Assembly: GCA_965218425.1 (NCBI GenBank)
Contig: OZ244621.1
Coordinates: forward strand, 2,279,369-2,343,368
Length of the DNA: 64,000 bases
Source: an uncultured Candidatus Binatia bacterium
GTDB taxonomy: Bacteria > Desulfobacterota > Binatia > UBA9968 > CAXXLF01
Reading direction: 5' to 3'
Within the stretch, counting starts at the first letter, position 1. Each line of letters opens with the position of its first letter. The notes under the pieces were generated by a model. It made no database searches, was not told the DNA's origin, and saw only the letters and a program-made list of their open reading frames with translations. The translations under genes were made by a program, and so were the position numbers. Below are positions 1,799-30,804 of this stretch, piece by piece.

Positions 1799-2644
1799 TT
1801 AGCTCTGGATAGGTTTGGAAGCGGACCGGGCGAGGTGCAGGAGCTCCTGGATGGGTCTCTTGGAAACCAGAAGGCAGATTCGTTCTCCCATGCGGTGCAT
1901 GACCCCATTTATCCCATCGTTGGAGAAAGTATAAAAACTGACCTTTCTCTCCGGATCAAAGAGCCTGCGGGCTTGTGGTGGAGCGTCTTGTTCCGTGCCG
2001 AGAAAGGTAAAACAACTGACAGAAGGACCGGTGCCCTCGTACACGGCAATGAGGATATCGCGATTGCCGACTTCTTTGACCGTGCCGCCGACGGCCTTTA
2101 ATCCCGCGGAGGATAGATCATAACCCATTGGCGCGAATTTGCCCTCCATGGCCTGGTGCAATTGGTTTTTAATTGCTGATGGGCTTTCGGCTCGGACAAA
2201 GGAAAGGTCGCCTGAAGCAATCTGTGCATGCGCCTCTATGGCTGCCAGAGGCATAGGCTGACCGGTCGGCCAGGTCAGGTAAAATAAAGGGACGAGCAGT
2301 AAAATCAGTGCGGCCGATGCAAAGGCGGGGCGGGTGATGAAATTGGGTGTCCGGGAGAACCCTTTACAACCTTGGGTTGGTTCGGTGGCCTGAGGTGAGA
2401 TATGGTGATCCGCGAGGATCTTTGCTCTGAGATCGGAGGGGGCGGACACTTTGGCGCCGATGGAAAAGAGCTGTTTTTTGAGCTCCTTTTCCTGCTCAAA
2501 TACGGTTTGACAGTTCACGCAATTTTTTAGATGGCTCTCTATGGCCTGTCGCTCGAGGTCATTTAGTTCGCTATCCGCTAGAGCGGTTATAAGCTCCTCG
2601 GCCTCTTTACAAGTCATTTCCGTTACTTTCCTTCCTCCATGCAC
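1799..2644 (-). CDS. anti-sigma factor (zinc-finger HxxxCxxC N-terminal domain, one TM segment, periplasmic C-terminal domain)
   Basis: N-terminal ...MTCKEAEELITALADSELNDLERQAIESHLKNCVNCQ (putative zinc-finger anti-sigma motif), central hydrophobic segment. Likely true start at the internal Met near 2617. Confidence 0.6.
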   Translation of the reverse strand: MHGGRKVTEMTCKEAEELITALADSELNDLERQAIESHLKNCVNCQTVFEQEKELKKQLFSIGAKVSAPSDLRAKILADHHISPQATEPTQGCKGFSRTPNFITRPAFASAALILLLVPLFYLTWPTGQPMPLAAIEAHAQIASGDLSFVRAESPSAIKNQLHQAMEGKFAPMGYDLSSAGLKAVGGTVKEVGNRDILIAVYEGTGPSVSCFTFLGTEQDAPPQARRLFDPERKVSFYTFSNDGINGVMHRMGERICLLVSKRPIQELLHLARSASKPIQS

Positions 2645-2834
2645 AATAGCTATAACCTATACAACGTCGTTCCTACCCCAGGAGTTCCCGAAATATTACC
2701 CCTTTACGGCGGCAAATCGATATCATAGCTCTTGGATGATCCGGGTGATTGTGGTAAGGGGTCTCTTCGTTCCGTGTCTTGTCCTAGAAAATATTCTGCA
2801 CGGAGTCTTGCACGATGACAAGGGGAGAAAGTTT

Positions 2835-4205
2835 ATGACCACGAAATACGATGCCATCGTTATCGGTACAGGCCAGTCGGGCCCTTCCCTGGCCGCGCGG
2901 ATGGCGGGTGAAGGAATGAAAGTTGCCATCATTGAACGCAAGTCGTTTGGTGGCACCTGCGTTAATACCGGTTGAATACCCACCAAGACCCTGGTGGCCA
3001 GTGCCCATGCCGCTCACATTGCAAGGCGTGGGGCTGAATACGGGGTGATGATCGGCGGGCCGGTCACCGTGGATATGAAAAAGGTCAAGGAGCGTAAGGA
3101 CAAGGCGGTGCAGCGGTCCAATCAGGGAGTGGGCAATTGGGTCAAGAACCTGAAGAACGCTAAGGTTTACGAAGACCACGGGCGGTTCGAGGGACCCCAC
3201 GCGGTGCGTGTGGGAGGGGAGCTCATAGAGGCGGATAAGATTTTCATCAATGTCGGCGCGCGCGCGTCGGTAATGGACCTCCCTGGGGTAAATTACTTCA
3301 CCAATTCGAGCATCATGGAGGTGGATTTTCTCCCAAAGCACCTGATCGTGGTCGGCGGAAGCTACATCGGCCTGGAGTTTGGTCAGATGTACAGACGCTT
3401 CGGCAGCGAAGTGACCATCGTGGACCGTGGGCCTCGGTTGACCCAGCAGGATGATGAGGACACTTCCCTGGCGATCAAGGAGATTTTGGAAGCGGAGGGG
3501 GTGAACGTTCGGCTCGAAGCTGAATGTATTTCTGCTGCGCAAAAGGGCGATCAGATCACCGTCAATTTGGACTGCAAAACCGGAGGTAAGGAGGTAACGG
3601 GTACCCACCTGCTGCTCGCCATCGGACGGCGTCCCAACACGGACGACCTGGGCATAGATAAAGCAGGCCTCGAAGTGGATCGGCGGGGGTACATCAAGGT
3701 GGACGATCGGCTTCAGACCAACGTGCCTGGAGTTTGGGCCATTGGGGACTGCAATGGCAAGGGAGCCTTCACCCACACCTCGTATAACGACTATGAAATT
3801 GTTGCGGCCAATCTGTTCGACGACGACCCACGCCGGGTCAGCGACCGAATTTTAACCTATGGGATGTTTATCGATCCGCCCCTCGGACGCGCGGGAATGA
3901 TCGAAGATGCAGTGAAAAAATCAGGCCGCAAAGCGTTGATAGCAAAGAGGCCCATGACTCGTGTGGCGCGCGCCGTGGAGAAAGGCGAGACACAGGGATT
4001 TATGAAGATCTTGGTGGATGCCGAAACCAAAGAGATCCTCGGGGCCGCCGTCCTTGGTGTTGGTGGCGATGAAATCATTCATTCCATCCTGGATGTGATG
4101 TACGCCAAGGCGCCCTGCACGGTTATTCAGCGGGCTGTCCACGCCCACCCAACGGTGTCGGAGCTGATACCCACCATGCTGGGGGACCTGAAGCCGCTGG
4201 AGTGA
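2835..4205 (+). CDS. FAD/NAD(P)-dependent pyridine nucleotide-disulfide oxidoreductase (mercuric reductase / RclA-like class I) with selenocysteine at the redox-active site (GGTCVNTG-U-IPTK)
   Basis: ATG 2835 preceded by AGGGGAG RBS. GxGxxG FAD motif (VIGTGQSG). In-frame TGA at 2973-2975 sits exactly where the second Cys of the conserved CVNxGCIPSK disulfide motif is expected, and the frame continues uninterrupted to 4205 with a second Rossmann motif and the C-terminal HAHPTxSE dimerisation signature. A 7-bp hairpin lies at 2979-2998, just 3' of the TGA. Confidence 0.8.
2979..2998 (+). promoter_or_regulatory. hairpin immediately 3' of the Sec-TGA of the oxidoreductase (candidate bacterial SECIS core)
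   Basis: CCCACCA-AGACCC-TGGTGGG-like 7-bp stem / 6-nt loop at 2979-2998. Confidence 0.4.
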
Positions 4206-20651: not shown

Positions 20652-20969
20652 TCAGATCGGGACCTCTCTCAGTTCACCGGGGCGTATTTCGTCAAGGACA
20701 GTGCGATTCTCTTCTATCCGCGGCTGGATATAGGGCCATGCCGTGGACAGCAGGACGACAATCGCCAGTCGCCTATCTGTGAGATTCCGCTGGTATCGCA
20801 TATTCTGGTCAGTGGTGATGAGGACTTCGTAGCCTTCCTGCTCGGCCTCCTCAACCAAGTCTCCATTTCCGAGTCCTGACTATCCTTGCTCCGCTGCCGT
20901 ATCCACCGAGTGTCCGTGCAGATGCCCTCGAAGCGGCTTAGGCGTTCCCTGGTCGAATAGAATCTTCAC
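20652..20969 (-). pseudogene. DUF5615-family (PIN-like, toxin-like) gene with premature in-frame TAG
   Basis: Minus-strand translation from a GTG overlapping the DUF433 stop: (M)KILFDQGTPKPLRGHLHGHSVDTAAEQG-TAG-SGLGNGDLVEEAEQEGYEVLITTDQNMRYQRNLTDRRLAIVVL... matches DUF5615. The TAG at 20880-20882 falls where family members carry a conserved Trp (TGG). The supplied ORF track lists the distal part as '+', but the + strand there encodes only the antisense read-through of hsdR. Confidence 0.65.
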
Positions 20970-21193
20970 GGTTCTACGGAAACTTTGAGGGACTTTGCCG
21001 CGTGTTCGAGAACGGCTCTGACCTTCCATTCCTCCACGCCCTCGAACCAATCCAGGAACTGTTCTATCGTGGCGCCGCTCTCAAGGTTCTCGAAGAGGGC
21101 AGATACGGGCACTCTGGTTCCGGTGAACACCCAGGCTCCACTAAGCCTGCCGGGTACGCTTTCGACTGCCGGGCACTTTCCCCAGTCCGTCAT
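20966..21193 (-). CDS. DUF433-family protein (antitoxin-like partner of DUF5615)
   Basis: MTDWGKCPAVESVPGRLSGAWVFTGTRVPVSALFENLESGATIEQFLDWFEGV is a typical DUF433 sequence; the gene is immediately upstream of, and translationally coupled to, the DUF5615 gene. Confidence 0.75.
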   Translation of the reverse strand: MTDWGKCPAVESVPGRLSGAWVFTGTRVPVSALFENLESGATIEQFLDWFEGVEEWKVRAVLEHAAKSLKVSVEP

Positions 21194-21996
21194 ACCGTCA
21201 CCTCGGCAGGAGGGTGTAGGTTTCTATCTACACGGTCTGTCAATGGGCCGTCTTCCTCTGACGAGTCCTGCTCGTCCGCCTCATCGGGCAACCGTGCCGC
21301 CGCTTCGCGAACGTCGAGCTTGCCGGTGACCACGTCGGCGATGAGGCGGGTGCGGTACTCGCGGAGGAGGTTGATTTGGTGCTGGGCGCGGTCAATAGCA
21401 ACGTCGATAATGGCGGCAGCTTTGTCGAGATACGTAACGATGGCGGCTTGTTCGGGGAGGGGGGGTAAAGCAAGGATGAGAGCTTTGACCATGCCCGAGT
21501 TAAGCCCGCGCATGATCGAACCCTTCCCCGCAACCGCGATCTGCTTCTTCACATAGGTGGACTCGTCAATAAGCCGCGAGGCGAATCTGACATTGATGCT
21601 AACGTCAGTTCGCAATCGAAGGAGATGCGAATCCATGATACCCATGGGGGCATCGTCAGGAACATAGGTACACCTTCCGGTTGTTCCCATCATCGTCACC
21701 AACAGATCATTTGGGAGCACTTTGCAAGCGGATAGTTCGTTGAATTTCTCTTGGTCGACGAATTTCGTGCCGCGATCAAAGTCCCTGGCAATGACGTTGG
21801 CCTGGCCGTACACTTTGTAACCCGATGGTGACATCTGTTCGAGCTTCAGTTGGCTGCCGAAAGGGCCGATCTTAATCCCGTCATAAGTGCGGAGCTTTCG
21901 GCGAAGTGCGTCAACCTCCCAATGCACTGGAACCTCGCCCAGCCATGGCACGCCAGAGTCCTTCATCGCGGGGTAGGGCTTGAGATCGGCGATCAT
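21190..21996 (-). CDS. hsdS: type I R-M specificity subunit HsdS, half-size (single target-recognition domain plus conserved C-terminal coiled-coil)
   Basis: N-terminal conserved MKDSGVPWLGEVPVHWEV, one TRD, C-terminal LLREYRTRLIADVVTGKLDVREAAARLP. ~268 aa (full-size HsdS ~400-470). Confidence 0.7.
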   Translation of the reverse strand: MIADLKPYPAMKDSGVPWLGEVPVHWEVDALRRKLRTYDGIKIGPFGSQLKLEQMSPSGYKVYGQANVIARDFDRGTKFVDQEKFNELSACKVLPNDLLVTMMGTTGRCTYVPDDAPMGIMDSHLLRLRTDVSINVRFASRLIDESTYVKKQIAVAGKGSIMRGLNSGMVKALILALPPLPEQAAIVTYLDKAAAIIDVAIDRAQHQINLLREYRTRLIADVVTGKLDVREAAARLPDEADEQDSSEEDGPLTDRVDRNLHPPAEVTV

Positions 21997-22127
21997 GCTT
22001 CAGCCTCTCTGTTACCCATTTGCTTTTCGAAGGCTTGGCGCACGAGGCCCATCACGTAAGGCGGTTCGTCCGGCGTGCTCAAGACTACCTCCACGTCGCC
22101 GTTTCCACTGTGACCGATTCCCGTCAT
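21993..22127 (-). CDS. small hypothetical ORF (44 aa) overlapping the hsdS start (ATGA)
   Basis: MTGIGHSGNGDVEVVLSTPDEPPYVMGLVRQAFEKQMGNREAEA; coupling geometry only; could be a remnant of the upstream truncated gene. Confidence 0.2.
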   Translation of the reverse strand: MTGIGHSGNGDVEVVLSTPDEPPYVMGLVRQAFEKQMGNREAEA

Positions 22128-22321
22128 ATCCCGAGCCTGACCCCTGGGACTGGTTGCATTTCATTGCGCCTGCATCGCGCTGCGTAGGCATTGAAGTTCT
22201 CCGGAAAAGCGCGTTTGAACTGAAGCGCAATTCCGCGCCCCATGACCCCGACGCAGTTGACGGTATTGACCAGAGCTTCGGCTTCTTCGGCGAGGATGTC
22301 GCCGGTCTTGTATTCGATCAT
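22124..22321 (-). pseudogene. darG: DarG-like macrodomain (ADP-ribosyl glycohydrolase antitoxin) N-terminal fragment
   Basis: MIEYKTGDILAEEAEALVNTVNCVGVMGRGIALQFKRAFPENFNAYAARCRRNEM matches the N-terminal macrodomain of DarG antitoxins. ORF stops after 65 aa (full length ~340 aa); no DarT toxin gene nearby. Confidence 0.6.
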
Positions 22322-22454
22322 GGCCTTTCCCCTTCCTCGTCAGTAATACCACTCTTTCTTGATTTCAACAGGAGATCGTTCTCGGGAATGATAGAAGGCA
22401 GACGGTCTACATGGACGATGTGGTAGATCTTGGGATCGGCGGGTACCGGCATGG

Positions 22455-22891
22455 TCAGTACTCGGCATCCGACAGTTCGACATCTTGGTCAATGGGTTCG
22501 CGCCATTCCTCAAACTCATCGACTGGCTCCGGTCCCTCGACCTCGTCCGGGAGTCTTGCCGCCGCCTCGCGCACATCGAGCTTGCCGGTGACAATATCGG
22601 CGATGAGTCGGGTGCGGTATTCGCGGAGAAGGGCAAGTTCGCCGTGCGAGAGGTCAATAGCACGCCGTGCGTCTGCCGACTCTTTGCCGACGACCTCGAC
22701 GATAGTGCGCTGCTCCTCCTGTGGCGGACACAGCAACTTGATACGAAGGAACTCCTCCGGGTACATCCTCAGTCGTGACGAGCGGATACCCGTTGACCGG
22801 CGGATGTACTCGCTCTTATATGACGCCGTACGCAGCAGGAGATCAGCGTACTCGGCAAGCAGTCTCGAAGAGCGGTGTGGTTGGTAGACAG
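22455..22891 (-). pseudogene. hsdS: hsdS C-terminal portion, separated from its N-terminal portion by an IS3-family insertion
   Basis: Translation from the IS boundary reads ...YQPHRSSRLLAEYADLLL...LLREYRTRLIADIVTGKLDVREAAARLPDE (HsdS TRD2 plus C-terminal repeat). Joining 24160.. to ..22887 restores a continuous reading ...GIVSPSYAV-YQPHRS... Confidence 0.8.
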
Positions 22892-24159
22892 TGACCTTGC
22901 CCCCTAAAACGAGTCCAGGTGAAATGTTAGGGATTTTGATTTTAGGAAGGAGGCAAGGATGGCAAGAAAGCGATTTACGGCCGAGCAGATTATCCTCAAG
23001 CTGCGTGAGGCGGAGGTGAGCTTGGCCCAAGGGAAGGCGGTGGGCCAGGTGTGCAAGCAGGTGGGGGTAACCGTGCAGACCTACTACCGGTGGAGGAAGG
23101 AATATGGAGGCCTGAAGATGGATCAGGCCAAGAGGCTCAAGGCCTTGGACAAGGAGAATGCGCGGTTGAAGAAGCTGGTGGCGGATCTATCGCTGGACAA
23201 CCAGATCCTGAAGGAAGTGTCCTCGGGAAACTTCTAGGCCCGGCGAAGAGGAGACGAGCGGTGATATGGGCCAGAGAAAGATTGGGACCTGATCGAGTCT
23301 CCGAACGCCGGGCTTGCCAAGTGTTGGGACAGCCGCGATCGACGCAACGAAGAGTCCGAGAGATCCCGGAAGAGGAAGCAAGACTAGTGGCTCGGATGAT
23401 GGAGCTGGCCAGCGAATACGGGCGATACGGCTACCGGAGGATTACGGCCATGCTGCGTGGGGAGGGGTGGAAGGTCAACCACAAGCGAGTGGAGAGGCTC
23501 TGGAGGCAGGAAGGGCTGAAAGTCCTCAGCCGTCAGCCTAAGCGAGGGAGGCTCCGGTTGACTGATGGCTCCTGCATTCGCCTGAGACCGGCGCATCGAA
23601 ACCATGTGTGGAGTTATGACTTCGTGCACGAGCGAACCGAAGACGGTCGGGCCTTTCGGCTGTTGAGCATCCTGGATGAATACACCCGGGAGTGCTTGGC
23701 GATTGATGTGGCCAGACGGATGAATCACCGGGATGTGCTGGAACGGTTAGCGGAGCTATTCGTGGAACGGGGCGTGCCGCAGTCCCTTCGGTCCGACAAT
23801 GGCCCCGAGTTTACGGCTCAGGCTATCCGGGACTGGCTCAAGGCCATTGGTGTCAGGACACTCTACATCGAGCCTGGCAGTCCTTGGGAGAATGGCTACG
23901 TGGAGAGTTTTAACGGAAAACTCAGGGATGAGCTGCTCAACCGGGAGGTGTTTGAAACCCTGAGGGAAGCTCAGGTGCTGATCGAAAGATGGAGAAGAGA
24001 GTATAACCAGCGGCGGCCTCACAGCGCCCTGGGCTATCGTTCTCCGGCACCGGAGGCCTTTCTGCCCAGAGCGCAGGCTGGGAATTCATCCCCATGGGCT
24101 GGACTCCAGATAATTCCGGCTCTAACTTAAAGGGTGGTACCACTCCTGGGGGCAGGTCA
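22892..24159 (+). mobile_element. IS3-family insertion sequence (orfA HTH plus orfB DDE integrase), 1268 bp, imperfect terminal IRs TGACCTTGCCCCC / GGGGGCAGGTCA, 4-bp target-site duplication ACAG
   Basis: orfA 22959..23237 ([20 protein letters not shown]...[18 protein letters not shown]); overlapping orfB 23051..24130 in the -1 frame with the DDE core (…[10 protein letters not shown]…DNGPEFT…[20 protein letters not shown]…). TSD ACAG at 22888-22891 and 24160-24163. Confidence 0.85.
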
Positions 24160-25154
24160 ACAGCATACGAGGGGCTGACTATTCCAGTCTGCCTAGCAAC
24201 GCCCAGAGCGCCCATCCAAGCCCACATCGTATTGATGACCAGATCGCCGGGCCTACACAACTTGTGCCCGACGTTCGACACCGCCATAAACATCGTGATG
24301 TTCTTCTCACTTCGCGGCGTTACTCCGGTAATGTGAGACACGGACAGCAATTCCTCTGAGCCGGTCTCAGAGCGCTCATCCGTTTCCCGGAAGCACCATT
24401 TCGCTGGCCTTATTTCCCAATGCGCCGGCACCTTTCCCAGCCACTCAACGCCGGAGTCCTTGTAGGCCGGGTAGGGCTGGCCGGTGCAGATGTCCACTTG
24501 GCCCGTGACGGCGCGGTGGATGATGGCCTGCTTCTGCTCCTCCAGCAACTTGATCAGCTTCTGCTTGGCGCGGATGTAGCGCCGGATGCGCCGGTCGGCG
24601 TGGTCGAGGAAGCGGACGATGGCAGCCTGTTCGGGGAGGGGGGGGATAACTGTTCTAATCTCTCGGATTTCACTTTCACTAATAGCGGGTACTGGCCCTG
24701 GTTTCGCAATTGTTGCTAAATCAAGGTGCTCCAGCAGCAACAAGACGAACTGCGGGTTGCCACGACGGACGATGCAGCCCATCAGATTGTTGTCTATACA
24801 GCATGGACGCTCGACCACTCGCCTCTTGTTGGTCAATAGTGCCCCGCCAACTTTAGGGAACACGATTGTTCTAGACGGGAAAATGTTTGCGCCAAGTCTT
24901 GATGCGGTACTACGAGCAACGGAGTTATTCCAACTCCCCATCACTCTGTCGTTATTGGGAAGGTTCATATCGGAGACTTTGAAAAACGGCAGTTCCAGGT
25001 TCTGTTGGCCTTGTTCCAAAATTGGAAATCCAGCTCCGCTACTGAAATGCCCTAACCGCTTCAAGGCTATCACTTCCCAATGCGACGGCACATCACCGAG
25101 CCACTCGACACCGGAGGGCTTGTAGGCGGGGTGAGAGTGGATTCTGGCAGTCAT
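24160..25154 (-). pseudogene. hsdS: hsdS N-terminal portion (TRD1 plus central conserved region plus start of TRD2), interrupted by the IS3 element
   Basis: MTARIHSHPAYKPSGVEWLGDVPSHWEV...PLPEQAAIVRFLD...KQKLIKLLEEQKQAIIHRAVTGQVD...YKDSGVEWLGKVPAHWEI...GIVSPSYAV then runs into IS sequence. Confidence 0.8.
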
Positions 25155-27743
25155 GTGAGACCTGCACTTTGCACCGGGACACGAACGGCCAGCCGGTCTC
25201 TCACTTCCTGGTAGATTGGAATGTTGATTCCTTCGGCAACTTCCAGCGTCACGGCCAAGCCGAACCGTATCGGAGCAGGTATATCACTGGCATCGGCACG
25301 ACAGTTGACTTTGATCGCAATGGTGTCCCCGTCCTGGAAGGCCACCGCCCTAGCACCTTCAAGAACCTCGTGCTGAACCGTGCTTCTTTGGACCGCAAAG
25401 CCGTCGGCGCAAACGCGGTCGGGTGCTATATCGTATTTGGGATTGAACCAAAGGTGAGCGATCCGATAGTTCTGACTGGTACTGCTAACCGGAGAGATCC
25501 ATGCGAGCGTAATTGTCAAACGCCTGCGCTCGTTCACAGCTGACAGGCTGGGTGGCAGTGGAAGGATGAACTCAGCTCCTTCGCCATCGCTGAGTTCGCC
25601 AAACCCCAACACCGTGACGCGTTGCTCCGTGCCAGCCATGACCTTCGCGAGATCGACCGAGCCGTATCCCAAGAACCGTCCGAGGTACTCCTTGAGGACT
25701 CGGCTATTTTGGGCGTTCTTCAGGGCGGACTCGTATCGGAATCTAGCATCTGCCCAGTCTGCGCTGTGCACAAGAAGTGCTTTGATCAAAACCACGTCGA
25801 AGTCCGTGGGCAGGGGCGTGTCTAGTTGCCGGCGGAGTTGCTCGATCAGTTCATAAAGAAAGTATGCACCGCGTGCAGCAAGAGCCGCGGCATCGCTTGT
25901 GCCTCTTGTGTGCATTTTTCGGTTCAACTGCCCCGCGTTACCGGGAGTAGCAACGCAGTGTCCAGGAGGGCTAGTAAACCCGTTGGCCTGCAGAGTGGCC
26001 TTGGTATGAGGTAGTTCCCATCTTCTCGCCCAGGAACTGCCTTCCGCCTGGCAGGAAAACATCGGGCTTAATAGCGCGCCGGTATCCTGGTCCATGAGCG
26101 CTGATCACGTTCGGTAAATCTGTCCCTACAAAAGGGTCGATCAGGCGGTTCAGCGAGGGGGATGACGCATCTGCATGTACTGCCCCAATTGTGAGGCCGT
26201 TCAGCGTCTCGGCAGGTGATAACAGCCGCCGGTTACGCGTGTCCATCGCAAGCGCCTTTACCACAGCTCGTTCCCGTTCTTCGGCTGTTAGGGTGCTTAG
26301 GTCAGACCTTGGAAGGTCCAACTCAATATCCTGGAGATGATTGCCTGCACTGACTATGAACAGGATGTTGTACTTCCATGAAAGCCAGTCCAGGAGTCGC
26401 GCCCAGGAACTCATCTCACGGATAAGAGGACGCGTTTGATCGCATATGGACAGATTGATAATGCGAACGCTGAGTGCTGCTGGTGGCTCACCGTTTTCGG
26501 TCTCGTATAATCTCCGCACCGACCTATGGATCAGGTCTATTGGCAGCACATTCGTGGGTATGGCTTCCTCGATGAATCGCCCGGTAGAGTCGCGTCGGGG
26601 TTGCATGACCGGTCTCGTGTACAGCGGTTTTCCTGTCGCATCGCCGTGTTCATTGAGGTCTCCATGACAGATAAGTGATGTCATTGCGGTGCCATGCACA
26701 CGCTCGTGTGCCTGGTAGGCGTTCTCGTAACCATCCGGATCGTCGATGATCAACCGTCCGTCGAGCAGTTGGTGTCCCGTCAGAGGCATGCCGTCGAACA
26801 AGGCCACGACGGGGTCTCCCTGGGGCAGCTCTGGCTTCGGCTCATCCTGAAGAGAATCCGTCTCCTCAGAATCTTCGGACATACGAATCGCGCACTGCCC
26901 GACCGGACGCAGGTGCATTATGTCTTCGCACTGAAGCAACCTAACCTCCTGGAAGGCATGGAGTCGGTCGATGATATCCTGGACTCGGGTTCGGTGTAGT
27001 CGTCCCAGAACGGCATGGTAAGCAATGTCAGGAATGACACATTGCTGGATCACTTCACCGTTCAAGGACGCGATAATTTCGCGAATATTGGATTCAGCCT
27101 GTTCTGGGCGTCTGTCATCCGCCCTGAACCATAACTCGATTTCGAAAGGAACGTTTTCTTGTCCGTACTGTAGGCGATCCTGCCAATCCTCCATGAGGCC
27201 GGTCTCCCGAATCCGATCCTCTGCGTCCCACGGCCGTATGGTATGGAGGCATTCGAATGCGTGTTTCCATGGAGCCAAGCCCCTGGCAAACTTCGTGTTA
27301 CGATTCTTCCGCCACTCTCGAAATAAGTTATACAATTCCTGTAACGCCTGCAGGTCAGTCATTACAAGGAAGAGTTGGCCTTTCAGTTGCTTGTCCGGAC
27401 TCTTCTCATCCTCGAAGCCGTAGTCGGGAGAAATGTCGTCGAGTTCGTATTCAGCTAACCACTCCAACCCCGACACCTTTTCCACCGCTCGGATAAAGTT
27501 CTGTATTGAGCCAATGGTTTCAATCACCAGGACCTGTTCAGGTTGAAGGCCAAGAGGATGATCCTGAAGGGCAAGGCGTTTTTTTTCCATGTTCTCTTGA
27601 AGGCGTTGGAACTGCGGCTCCAGCCGTTCTGCCTGTCGTGATGCGTCCGGGATACTAACTTTCCCTCCGCCTCCACCACGTTTAGCGCGTTCAGTGCGGG
27701 CCGGTTCAGAAAAGACAAGAAGCGGAAGGTTGGTCTCGGCCAT
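25151..27743 (-). pseudogene. ietS: IetS-like S8 (subtilisin-family) serine peptidase, catalytic residues split across two overlapping frames
   Basis: ORF 25971..27743 carries the Asp (VALFDGMP), His (HGTAMTSL) and Asn (SAGN) motifs. ORF 25151..26095, in another frame and overlapping by ~125 nt, carries the Ser motif (GTSDAAALA). A single original gene of ~860 aa is implied, split by a frameshift or by a sequencing error. Confidence 0.6.
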
Positions 27744-27745
27744 GA

Positions 27746-28741
27746 TTAACTGCTTGCCTCTCTACTACTGGACTCCTTGAGTGTGAACCGCTTCTTCCAA
27801 TGGTACAGGTGCTGTTCAACCATATGCTTAATGTTCCCACCCGGCTGTTCCAATACGATTTTTCGGAGGATGTCAGTCCCGAAGTCCTCGACTTCCGCGA
27901 AGCTCAAGCCCCGCATTCGCTGTCCGAGACTACGCGGGGATAGCCCGAGCGGATGTCCGGTCCGCTTCTCGAACCGATTGAACCACTCCTCAATCTGACT
28001 TTGAGTGGGCTGCGGGAGCTCCAATCGAATCTGGAAGCGGCGCCATACGGCACGGTCGAGAAGTTCAGGATGGTTGCTGGCCGTCACGACCACTACGTAG
28101 CTGGGAAGGGCATCGATCTGGAGCAGCAGCGAACTCACGACTCGCTTAATCTCTCCGGTTTCGTGCAGGTCACCGCGTTCCTTTCCCACCGAGTCGAACT
28201 CGTCGAAGAACAGCACACAGTGGCGAGATCTGGCGTGCTCGAAGACTTGGCTTATCCTTTGCGCAGTCTCGCCCAGGTAGCTGCCGATGACTGCTTCATA
28301 GCGGACTACCATGAATGGAACGCTCAAGGCGTCGGCAAGTGCCTCCGCCAGAGTGGTCTTGCCATTCCCTGGAGGCCCGGCAAGCAGTATGCGGTTGCGC
28401 GGTTCGAGGTTGTACGACCGAAGCAGATCGGCGCGGTGCTGTTCGGTCACCAGTTCGCGAATGGTTTCCTCAGCATCGGCGGATAGTATAAGATCCTGCA
28501 GGCGGCGTACCGGGACAACATCTGCCACGAGAGGACCTGCCACCGAATGGGACGACCGTGACGCTGGCTGCGCATAGCGACCGTTCTCGATCTGAAGCTG
28601 CGCAAGCAACCGATCGGCTAGAATGGTGTGGTTCTTCGCACGCTCGTCGGCAGCCAGTGCCTCGACGGTCTTCCGGACTTGGCTCTCGTCGCCTTGTCTA
28701 CTGGCCTTTATCAGGCTCAGGATCAAGTCTGATCGTGCCAT
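27746..28741 (-). CDS. ietA: IetA-like AAA+ ATPase
   Basis: 331 aa; Walker A LLAGPPGNGKTTLA, Walker B VLFFDEFD, sensor region VVVTASNHPELLDRAVWRRF; directly upstream of and abutting the S8 peptidase gene. Confidence 0.65.
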   Translation of the reverse strand: MARSDLILSLIKASRQGDESQVRKTVEALAADERAKNHTILADRLLAQLQIENGRYAQPASRSSHSVAGPLVADVVPVRRLQDLILSADAEETIRELVTEQHRADLLRSYNLEPRNRILLAGPPGNGKTTLAEALADALSVPFMVVRYEAVIGSYLGETAQRISQVFEHARSRHCVLFFDEFDSVGKERGDLHETGEIKRVVSSLLLQIDALPSYVVVVTASNHPELLDRAVWRRFQIRLELPQPTQSQIEEWFNRFEKRTGHPLGLSPRSLGQRMRGLSFAEVEDFGTDILRKIVLEQPGGNIKHMVEQHLYHWKKRFTLKESSSREASS

Positions 28742-28743
28742 GG

Positions 28744-30804
28744 TTATCTCCTGTTACTCTCGGCAGGACGGTTAGACGTTTCGGCTGCCATAATCTTCTG
28801 TAGCAACCCCTCGGTTTCCTTCTCCACTGCCAGAATATCCGCCCGGATCTCTTCCAGCGTGCGCAGCGGCTGCGGCTTGTAGAAGTAGCGGGTGAAGCTG
28901 ATCTCGTAGCCGGTCTTGACGCTCGCCGGGTCGTACCAGGCGTCAGGGGCATAGGGCAGCACCTCGCGGCGAAGGAATGCTTCAATTCCGCCTTCCTCCA
29001 ACAGCGGCGCCTGCTCGGTGTCCCGCAGGTCGGTGTCCGGCTCGTACTCGACGACAGCCGGCTTGCCTTTGACGGTCGCCTCGAACAGGCCGCGCAGGGG
29101 GTCGGGCTCGACGCCCTTCCTGTGGATCTTCTTGATGACGGGCGGCGCGCTCTCGTCCCTCTCGGCGGTCTCCTTGAGCGCCTTGATCTCCTTCGGCGCG
29201 TAGACGCGGTCGGGGTCTATCCCCGTGAGCCGGAGGGGCCGCTCGACCGTCACCTTCCGATACCCGAAGGCGGCGTTCGGGAAGATCTTCGACTGCTCGG
29301 TCTCCTCGAAGGCCAGGAACGTGTCGCAGATGCGCTGGATGTCCTCGTCGGACAGCTCGCAGTTCTTCTTGCCGAGGTTCTTCCGGAGCGGCTTGTACCA
29401 GGGCGCGGCGTCGATGAGCTGGACCTTGCCTTGGCGATGGGCGGGTTTCCGGTTGGTCAGCACCCAGATGTAGGTGGCGATGCCGGTGTTGTAGAACATG
29501 TTGAGCGGCAGCGCGACGATCGCCTCCAGCCAGTCGTTTTCGATGATTCAGCGGCGGATGTTGCTCTCCCCCTGACCGGCGTCTCCGGTAAAGAGCGACG
29601 AGCCGTTGTGGACCTCGGCGATGCGGCTTCCCAGAGGGGCGCCGTGCTTCATCTTCGAGAGCATGTTCGCCAGGAACAGCATCTGACCGTCGCTGGAGCG
29701 GGTGATGAGCGAGTACTCGGCATCGCCGCCGTGTTCGATCAGAAAGCGCCGGTCCTTGATACCCTCCTTGCCGCCCAGGCGCTCCAGGTCGCTCTTCCAG
29801 CTCTTGCCGTAGGGCGGGTTGGAGAGCATGAAGTCGAACTCGCGGGACGGAAAGGCGTCGTTGGAGAGCGTCGAGTGTTCCGGCCCCCCGATGATGTTGT
29901 CGGCGGCTTCCCCCTCGCCCTTGAGGAGGAGGTCAGCCTTGGCGATGGCGTAGGTCTCGGCGTTGATCTCCTGGCCGTAGAGATGGGTGGCCGCCTGCTT
30001 GCCGCGCTGCCCGGCAATCTGCGTCAACGCCTCCTCGGCCACCGTCAACATGCCTCCGGTGCCGCAGGCGCCGTCGTATACCAGGTAGGTCCCGGAGTCG
30101 ATCCGGTCGGCGACAGGCAGGAGGACCAGCTTCGCCATGAGCTGCACGGCATCGCGGGGGGTCCAGTGCTCGCCGGCCTCCTCGTTGTTCTCCTCGTTGA
30201 AGCGGCGGACCAGCTCCTCGAAGACCGTGCCCATCGCGTGGTTATCGAGGCCGGGGTGTTTGATCGACCCGTCGCCGTGGAGGACCGGGTGCGGACTCAG
30301 GTTCACGTCCGGCGAAAGGAACTTCTCGATCAGCGTGCCGAGGGCGTCGGCCTTGGACAGGCGGGGGATCTGGTTCCGAAACTCGAACTTCTCCAGGATG
30401 TCCTGCACGTTCGGCGAGAAGCCGTCGAGATACGCCTCGAAGTCGGCCTTGAGCTGCTGTTGGCCGGCGCGGGCCTTGAGGTCGGGCAGCGTGAACTTCG
30501 ATGTGTTGTGGAACGCCTGGCCGGCGGCCTGACGCAGTGCCTGGTCCTGGTGGATGATCTTCGCCTGGTCGAGCGAGGCCTTCATCTCCAGCACGGCCGG
30601 CTTGCTCGGCTCCAGGAGGGAGTCGAGCCGCCGCAGCACGGTCATGGGCAAGATCACATCCCGATACTTGCCGCGGACGTAGAGGTCTCGCAGCACGTCA
30701 TCCGCGATGCCCCAGATGAAGTTGGCGATCCAGCCGAGTTGAGATTGGTCCACGGGAATCCTGGAAAGGCTCTGCCGGGATGTCCTTTTCGGCCGCCCCG
30801 GCAC
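28744..30804 (-). pseudogene. hsdM: type I R-M N6-adenine DNA methyltransferase HsdM with in-frame TGA at a conserved Trp position
   Basis: ORF 29548..30804 contains the HsdM N-domain and catalytic NPPYG, and stops at TGA (29548-29550) in ...FTGDAGQGESNIRR-TGA-IIENDWLEAIVALP... The frame then continues into ORF 28744..29499 (MFYNTGIATYIWVLTNRK...). Confidence 0.75.

Follow-up and report, generated by a model that had tools for sequence, protein, structure and literature searches.

The question raised by this locus is whether the element that splits an hsdS gene, encoding the specificity (S) subunit of a Type I restriction-modification (R-M) system, is an intact and recently inserted insertion sequence (IS), and what its arrival means for the enzyme. 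The gene lies in a stretch of 64,000 nucleotides (hereafter, the window) from an uncultured Candidatus Binatia bacterium (assembly GCA_965218425.1, contig OZ244621.1, positions 2,279,369 to 2,343,368). We conclude with high confidence that the element is an intact, autonomous IS of the IS3 family (IS407 subgroup) inserted in hsdS codons 331-332, within the second target recognition domain (TRD2). The insertion site comprises the following features, in window coordinates.

22888 to 22891: left copy of the target-site duplication (TSD), ACAG, read from the sequence; the 4-bp length is also found at four other sites of identical copies.
22892 to 24159, plus strand: complete IS of 1,268 bp, IS3 family, IS407 subgroup, unnamed; ten copies cover exactly the same span.
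22892 to 22904, plus strand: left inverted repeat (IRL), TGACCTTGCCCCC, with the 5′-TG end, read from the sequence.
24148 to 24159, plus strand: right inverted repeat (IRR), GGGGGCAGGTCA, with the CA-3′ end, read from the sequence.
24160 to 24163: right copy of the TSD, ACAG, read from the sequence.
24160 to 25154, minus strand: 5′ part of hsdS, codons 1 to about 332, with TRD1, the central conserved region and most of TRD2, from open reading frame (ORF) analysis.
22455 to 22891, minus strand: 3′ part of hsdS, codons about 331 to 475, with the end of TRD2 and the C-terminal conserved helix, from ORF analysis and alignment.

The original prediction, made from the letters of the window alone, had described a 1268-bp element between ACAG at 22888-22891 and ACAG at 24160-24163, and these limits were reproduced base for base. 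The left junction reads ...GGTAG-ACAG-TGACCTTGCCCCCTAAAACG... and the right one ...CCTGGGGGCAGGTCA-ACAG-CATACG.... The inverted repeats match each other in 12 bases, the sole difference being one extra T in the IRL, and they end in 5′-TG...CA-3′, as is the case in the IS3 family. A motif search revealed no second copy of the terminal motif in the 64-kb window. Further inside, the right arm (24110-24147) reads GAGTGGTACCA in the window element and in all its copies, and does not mirror the left arm.

Excision of positions 22892-24163, i.e., of the IS together with one ACAG, restores an uninterrupted minus-strand ORF of 475 codons, the reconstructed empty site being ...GGTGTGGTTGGTAGACAGCATACGAGGGGCTG.... 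The duplicated tetranucleotide, CTGT on the hsdS strand, spans codons 331-332 (Ala-Val), and the junction peptide ...GIVSPSYAVYQPHRSS... aligns without a gap with intact homologues of 470-480 aa (60-71% identity; consensus GIVSPSYAVYRP). A single alignment to the PADLOC profile Specificity_I (PDLC03191) takes in residues 7-439 of the reconstructed HsdS and profile positions 10-434 out of 436, in keeping with a full-length S subunit in which two TRDs alternate with two conserved helical regions. The gap-free junction and the single unbroken match to full-length S-subunit profiles bear out the earlier claim that the pre-insertion hsdS can be reconstructed exactly, as a continuous protein with two TRDs; only its length, given as about 476 aa, had to be refined to 475 aa. 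The IS is oriented opposite to hsdS, its site lies inside the second TRD, and the two hsdS halves carry no further lesion. The 5′ hsdS ORF runs into the IS and ends in a 73-aa tail encoded there, giving a 405-aa product that is present in a public collection (P0001).

The coding part of the element is organized as follows.

22959 to 23237, plus strand: orfA, 92 aa, with a helix-turn-helix (HTH) and a leucine zipper (ORF list; Pfam HTH_Tnp_1, 60.9 bits).
23231 to 24130, plus strand, −1 frame, open from 23051: orfB, with HTH_21 and the DDE core (Pfam rve 72.9, rve_3 101.5, HTH_21 58.8 bits).
23225 to 23231, plus strand: predicted slip site for programmed −1 frameshifting, G_GGA_AAC, in phase with orfA (X_XXY_YYZ) and two codons before its stop.
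23237 to 23314, plus strand: putative stimulatory stem-loop, 5 nt downstream of the heptamer (folded segment 80 nt, 23236-23315).

The orfA gene is preceded by an AGGAGG ribosome-binding site, and its zipper consists of four heptads (L63, L70, L77, L84). Fusion of orfA to the −1 frame at 23231 yields a 390-aa protein that matches the NCBIfam equivalog model NF033516 (transpos_IS3) with 310 bits over profile positions 7-366 of 369, the cut-off being 160 bits; against the IS481 profile, the fused OrfAB reached 155.8 bits, under its cut-off of 224. The fused protein bears a DD(35)E triad formed by D221, D280 and E316, with 35 residues between D280 and E316 and with R323 at E+7. The assignment to the IS3 family proposed in the original prediction is thus upheld by the transpos_IS3 score as well as by the HTH_Tnp_1, HTH_21, rve and rve_3 domains. 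In addition, a TSD of 4 bp and a length of 1,268 bp fall within the values typical of IS3-family elements (3-5 bp and about 1.0-1.75 kb, respectively). No sigma-70-like promoter was found in 22300-25300, and inspection by eye of a junction formed by the abutted IS ends revealed no convincing −35/−10 pair; scans of the window gave no Rfam match and no tRNA genes.

When looked up by exact match, the 92-aa OrfA was found at ten further places in two assemblies, ERZ25072670, which contains the window, and ERZ25067264; the contig names indicate coverage of about 8x and 11-13x. The ten copies are 99.9-100% identical to the window element over exactly bases 1-1268, and the flanks diverge from the first base outside. 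They occupy at least nine distinct insertion sites and differ by 0-1 substitutions per 1,268 bp. Because ten copies with differing flanks stop at exactly these ends, the limits of the element are not a chance match; nor does any IS sequence extend past them, since both these copies and relatives with 78% identity stop at bases 1 and 1268. Perfect 4-bp direct repeats flank six of the ten copies, or five of the nine distinct sites, with a chance expectation of 1/256 per copy. The duplicated sequences are ACGA (at one site, in both assemblies), GGAG, GAAA, ACAG and CAGC, so that the clean 4-bp TSD described earlier for the ACAG pair recurs among the copies. The element with the altered inner right arm has nevertheless reached at least nine sites.

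The insertion in the window is also present in the second assembly, ERZ25067264, where the locus is 99.98% identical over 17 kb. There, the 31-kb contig (L093, ctg791138) stops within the 5′ part of hsdS, at a point corresponding to window position 24780, about 620 bp past the IS; it may end there because the strains are heterogeneous, or the coverage low, upstream in the IetS/hsdS region.

Which group of IS3 elements does the IS belong to? Within the family, the TSD is 4 bp long in the IS407 subgroup, 5 bp in the IS2 subgroup and 3 bp in the others (PMC10045372), and IS407A has the ends TGACCTGCCCCCT...AGGGGGCAGGTCA and 4-bp target repeats (PMC2877748, Table 2). The terminal repeats of the window element match those of this IS3-family member. 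Its termini are of the IS407 type, TGACCTGCCCCC: when compared to IS407A and to L174, the IRR agrees in 12 of 12 bases, and the IRL is off by a 1-nt insertion. Thus the last 12 bases of the IRR, GGGGGCAGGTCA, are identical to those of IS407/IS407A from Burkholderia, the IRL is nearly so, and the TSD is likewise of 4 bp. An IS407-like copy in the Burkholderia phage vB_FKKS2 is 1,236 bp long and has IS407A ends, the TSD GGGA and the motif GGGAAAG...TGAGCCC. In pairwise comparisons only, elements of the phage collection annotated as IS407 or ISBp1 showed 37-42% amino acid identity and 228-298 bits over OrfA and OrfB, and elements of the IS2, IS629 and IS600 types 24-30% identity and roughly 60-110 bits. 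The best plasmid-database match, annotated as 'IS3 family transposase', had at most 66% nucleotide identity. Its termini, 4-bp TSD and pairwise matches place the element, which has no name as yet, in the IS407 subgroup.

The kinship is recognizable in other traits as well. As in the IS407 group, orfA and orfB lie in the 0 and −1 frames, G_GGA_AAN is followed by a stop codon and GCCC, and the length is similar. On the other hand, the OrfAB amino acid identity with IS407/IS407A is only about 40%, the window IRL has its extra T, and the heptamer ends in C instead of the G of the IS407-like phage copy. Unlike IS407 of Burkholderia, the window element resides in an uncultured bacterium, and its closest IS relatives are in metagenome-assembled genomes (MAGs) of Acidobacteriota.

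A scan of one genome per species retrieved 584 relatives. The closest, from MAGs of Acidobacteriota and Bryobacterales, show 79-82% OrfB and 78-79% nucleotide identity, align over the whole element (bases 1 to 1268) and have the same ends; 4-bp repeats flank four of 15. The sister ISs (L001-L018; OZ240092.1, OZ252113.1, OY760074.1, CBDFJA01) resemble the window element in being 1,266-1,269 bp long, multi-copy and flanked by 4-bp TSDs, and they share the terminal 12-13 bases, the identical frameshift region GGGAAACTTCTAGGCCCG and the same long hairpin. In contrast to the window element, in which the inner IRR is substituted, the inverted repeats of the sister ISs (L001-L016) reach about 25 bp, with AACGAGTCCA on both arms. 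The identity between the window element and the sister ISs falls under the level at which ISs usually count as isoforms by the ISfinder convention.

The original prediction had noted that the orfA/orfB overlap lacks a canonical A-AAA-AAG heptamer and had suggested GGGAAAC near 23225 as the slip site. Indeed, the overlap contains no run of six or more A, and GGGAAAC at 23225-23231 is in the correct phase. Among 48 aligned non-identical relatives (62-82% OrfB identity), GGGAAAN is present in 48/48 and GGGAAAC in 41/48, and the sequence TTC-TRA-GCCC after the heptamer is nearly invariant. Departures from GGGAAAN were seen in a few relatives: the position is taken by AAAAAAC in L062 and by GGTAAAC in L063, and L019 and L037, in which the sequence upstream is different, show GCTCAAC or GCTCAAA. 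The L063 variant is probably a mutated copy, to judge from L079 of the same genome, which has GGGAAAC. G_GGA_AAC is not unusual, because it is already a commoner minority heptamer in the IS1 and IS3 families: among ISfinder members of these families, G_GG.A_AA.C is one of the next commonest after A_AAA_AAG and A_AAA_AAA, and it is classed as a low-efficiency signal in E. coli (Sharma et al., PMC4066793).

The stem-loop predicted downstream has a minimum free energy of −36.8 kcal/mol (z = −4.72; none of 200 shuffled sequences was as stable), or 0.46 kcal/mol per nt, which is inside the range reported for 271 IS3-family members (0.452 ± 0.124 kcal/mol per nt; PMC4066793). Only the full 80-nt segment is exceptional, a 76-nt fold having z = +0.46. 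In the closest clade (four members), the hairpin z-scores are −4 to −7.6, and the closing stem of L001 shows a compensatory change of GGCG/CGCC to GACG/CGUC; in the wider family, the median is −1.05. We therefore claim the predicted hairpin for the closest clade only.

The element also shares its general plan with IS911, IS3 and IS2, namely the architecture of HTH, leucine zipper, HTH_21 and DDE core, the fusion by a −1 frameshift and the TG...CA ends, and transposition by copy-out-paste-in via a circle is presumably common to them. It differs from these elements, which belong to other subgroups with TSDs of 3 bp or 5 bp (PMC10045372), which mostly use heptamers of the A_AAA_AAG type (PMC4066793) and which, in the case of the IS2 type, show an identity of only about 24-30%. 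By analogy with IS911, IS2 and IS3, low-frequency −1 slippage of ribosomes on G_GGA_AAC would produce the OrfAB transposase, and OrfA alone would act as a regulator. OrfAB would then excise a copy of the IS as a circle with abutted ends in the copy-out-paste-in manner, and integration through staggered cuts 4 bp apart would leave the ACAG duplication.

Several observations weigh against the main conclusion, an intact, autonomous IS inserted in hsdS. First, the inner IRR reads GAGTGGTACCA vs. GAACGAGTCCA in the sister clade, and the symmetry with the IRL is lost there. Second, no TSD flanks four of the ten copies. Third, no empty site or intact allele with more than 75% identity came up in any collection searched, so that we infer the pre-insertion state from the occupied one. 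In a collection of 5.8 billion proteins, the reconstructed HsdS found a 99% match, which is the truncated 405-aa product of its own genome, and the next match was at 71%; in JGI metagenomes, the junction peptide PSYAVYQPHR, searched for exactly with degenerate codons, gave no match, and a scan for HsdS relatives gave partial segments with at most 75% identity. The only other assembly holding the locus carries the insertion too; hence, no empty site is known. Finally, covariation in the hairpin is not significant at the level of the family: with a two-helix model derived from the window and counted over the relatives, 61.8% of the cells were paired vs. 61.0% in shuffles, and RNAalifold on the 48 relatives returned just a trivial 3-bp helix.

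The TSD-less copies (L085, L086, L088 and L089, with the IS at 2434-3701 in each) have the flanks catc/atgt, tcat/atgg, caac/ctcc and cgac/gctg, respectively. We considered them as reciprocal products of recombination between IS copies and rejected this explanation, since, in a comparison by hand, no two of the retrieved copies have flanks that match reciprocally. L089 adjoins fragments of another IS3-family element and an IS256-type (Transposase_mut) transposase.

Some of these points would suit an alternative in which the element is a fixed, immobile relic and the insertion is old: both assemblies are occupied and no empty site was found, the inner IRR has diverged from the sister clade, and the TSD is absent from four of ten copies, as is expected after later rearrangements. 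Such a history appears very improbable in view of the presence of the element at no fewer than nine sites with 0-1 substitutions per copy, of the hsdS halves, which are free of further damage, and of an element in which the two ORFs, the DDE triad, the heptamer and the termini are all intact. The claim that the event is recent, based originally on the intact TSD and the match of the terminal repeats, can thus be retained, with the near-identity of copies at nine or more sites as a better argument than the TSD and with the reservation that both assemblies are occupied. In our reading, a recent insertion of an intact IS, recency rests on the near-identity of the copies and on an hsdS without secondary lesions, and not on an observed empty site.

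The disrupted gene belongs to a locus with all genes on the minus strand, in the order hsdM, IetA, IetS, hsdS::IS, a DarG fragment, a half-size hsdS, a DUF433 gene and hsdR. The hsdM gene (28744-30804) has an in-frame TGA at codon 419 (29548-29550, minus strand), giving ORFs of 418 and 251 codons; the TGA falls inside a conserved methyltransferase motif, ...GESNIRR*IIENDWLEAIVALP..., and the sequences before and after it are homologous, in one and the same frame, to solved HsdM structures. Between hsdM and hsdS, PADLOC identified an IetAS module, with IetA at 27746-28741 and IetS at 25151-27743, both on the minus strand (AAA ATPase model 485 bits, S8 protease model 737 bits). A frameshift at about 25910-26006 divides IetS into one piece of 590 aa, matching profile positions 1-570 of 855, and another of 254 aa, matching positions 600-851. 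The hsdM TGA and the IetS frameshift could be real lesions or consensus errors of an 8x long-read assembly.

A 65-aa ORF (22124-22321, minus strand) matches the model for DarG, a macrodomain antitoxin, over no more than positions 1-57 of 329 (E = 3e-30) and is a DarTG remnant between the disrupted hsdS and the half-size hsdS. The latter (21190-21996, minus strand, 268 aa), 1.2 kb downstream, is equivalent to a C-terminal half with one TRD and the conserved helix, and over 122 nt its 3′ conserved region repeats the 3′ end of the disrupted hsdS in direct orientation, with 79% identity. Directly upstream of hsdR, at 20652-21193 on the minus strand, lie the DUF433 gene (75 aa) and an unannotated 68-aa ORF, which had no PADLOC match and may be a small toxin-antitoxin-like pair. 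With the hsdM TGA, the IetS frameshift and the DarG fragment, the host locus looks decayed.

One could suppose that the IS insertion was a step in a stepwise silencing of this stacked defence island, made up of the Type I R-M system, the embedded IetAS, the DarG remnant and the spare half-size hsdS, possibly with the enzyme being re-programmed, not simply inactivated, should the truncated HsdS or its half-size neighbour confer a new, palindromic specificity. We regard this as very improbable; if it were true, an actively expanding IS would drive a change of R-M specificity in an uncultured lineage.

Even less can be said for the view that the insertion alters the specificity instead of abolishing it, the truncated HsdS or the half-size HsdS (21190-21996) dimerizing to recognize a palindromic site. 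A precedent exists: Tn5 in the hsdS of EcoDXXI reportedly broke the gene between the TRDs and left a functional half-subunit that recognized a palindromic site. In both cases, a mobile element breaks an S-subunit gene with two TRDs in a Type I R-M system. In the window, the 405-aa ORF with TRD1 and the central conserved region is still open, and a separate half-HsdS of 268 aa is encoded nearby. Unlike in EcoDXXI, however, the break in the window is inside TRD2 and not at a domain boundary, so that about 100 residues of the broken domain and unrelated sequence would follow, and hsdM, which would be required, is itself interrupted, with its TGA at codon 419 in the methyltransferase domain; altered specificity is, in our opinion, highly improbable. 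Barely credible is an assembly artefact, a low-coverage mis-join or a collapse through the repeated IS with no true insertion in hsdS, which the coverage of about 8x and 11-13x, the multi-copy nature of the IS and the end of the second assembly's contig only about 620 bp past it might suggest, because a chimeric join would not yield the halves of one hsdS in frame, collinear with its homologues and with exactly one 4-bp duplication, and the same junctions are present in an independent second assembly.

With the element taken as an intact IS truly inserted in TRD2, we infer that the full-length S subunit can no longer be made and that the Type I enzyme has lost both methylation recognition and restriction via this subunit. 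Such a loss would be tolerated, since restriction depends on the M2S core.

The event itself is ordinary, a new member of a known IS subgroup in an hsdS gene, and leaves the current understanding of IS3 elements and Type I R-M systems unchanged. The hsdS gene should be annotated as an IS-disrupted pseudogene and not as two hypothetical ORFs (the gene calls of 405 and 103 aa). With its ends, TSD length and predicted frameshift site defined, the element can enter ISfinder as a new member of the IS407 subgroup, and the comparison of 48 sequences provides family-level support for G_GGA_AAC, followed by the stop codon and GCCC, as the predicted frameshift cassette of its clade. For the organism, the copies at no fewer than nine sites, nearly identical in sequence, document a recent expansion of this IS in an uncultured genome.

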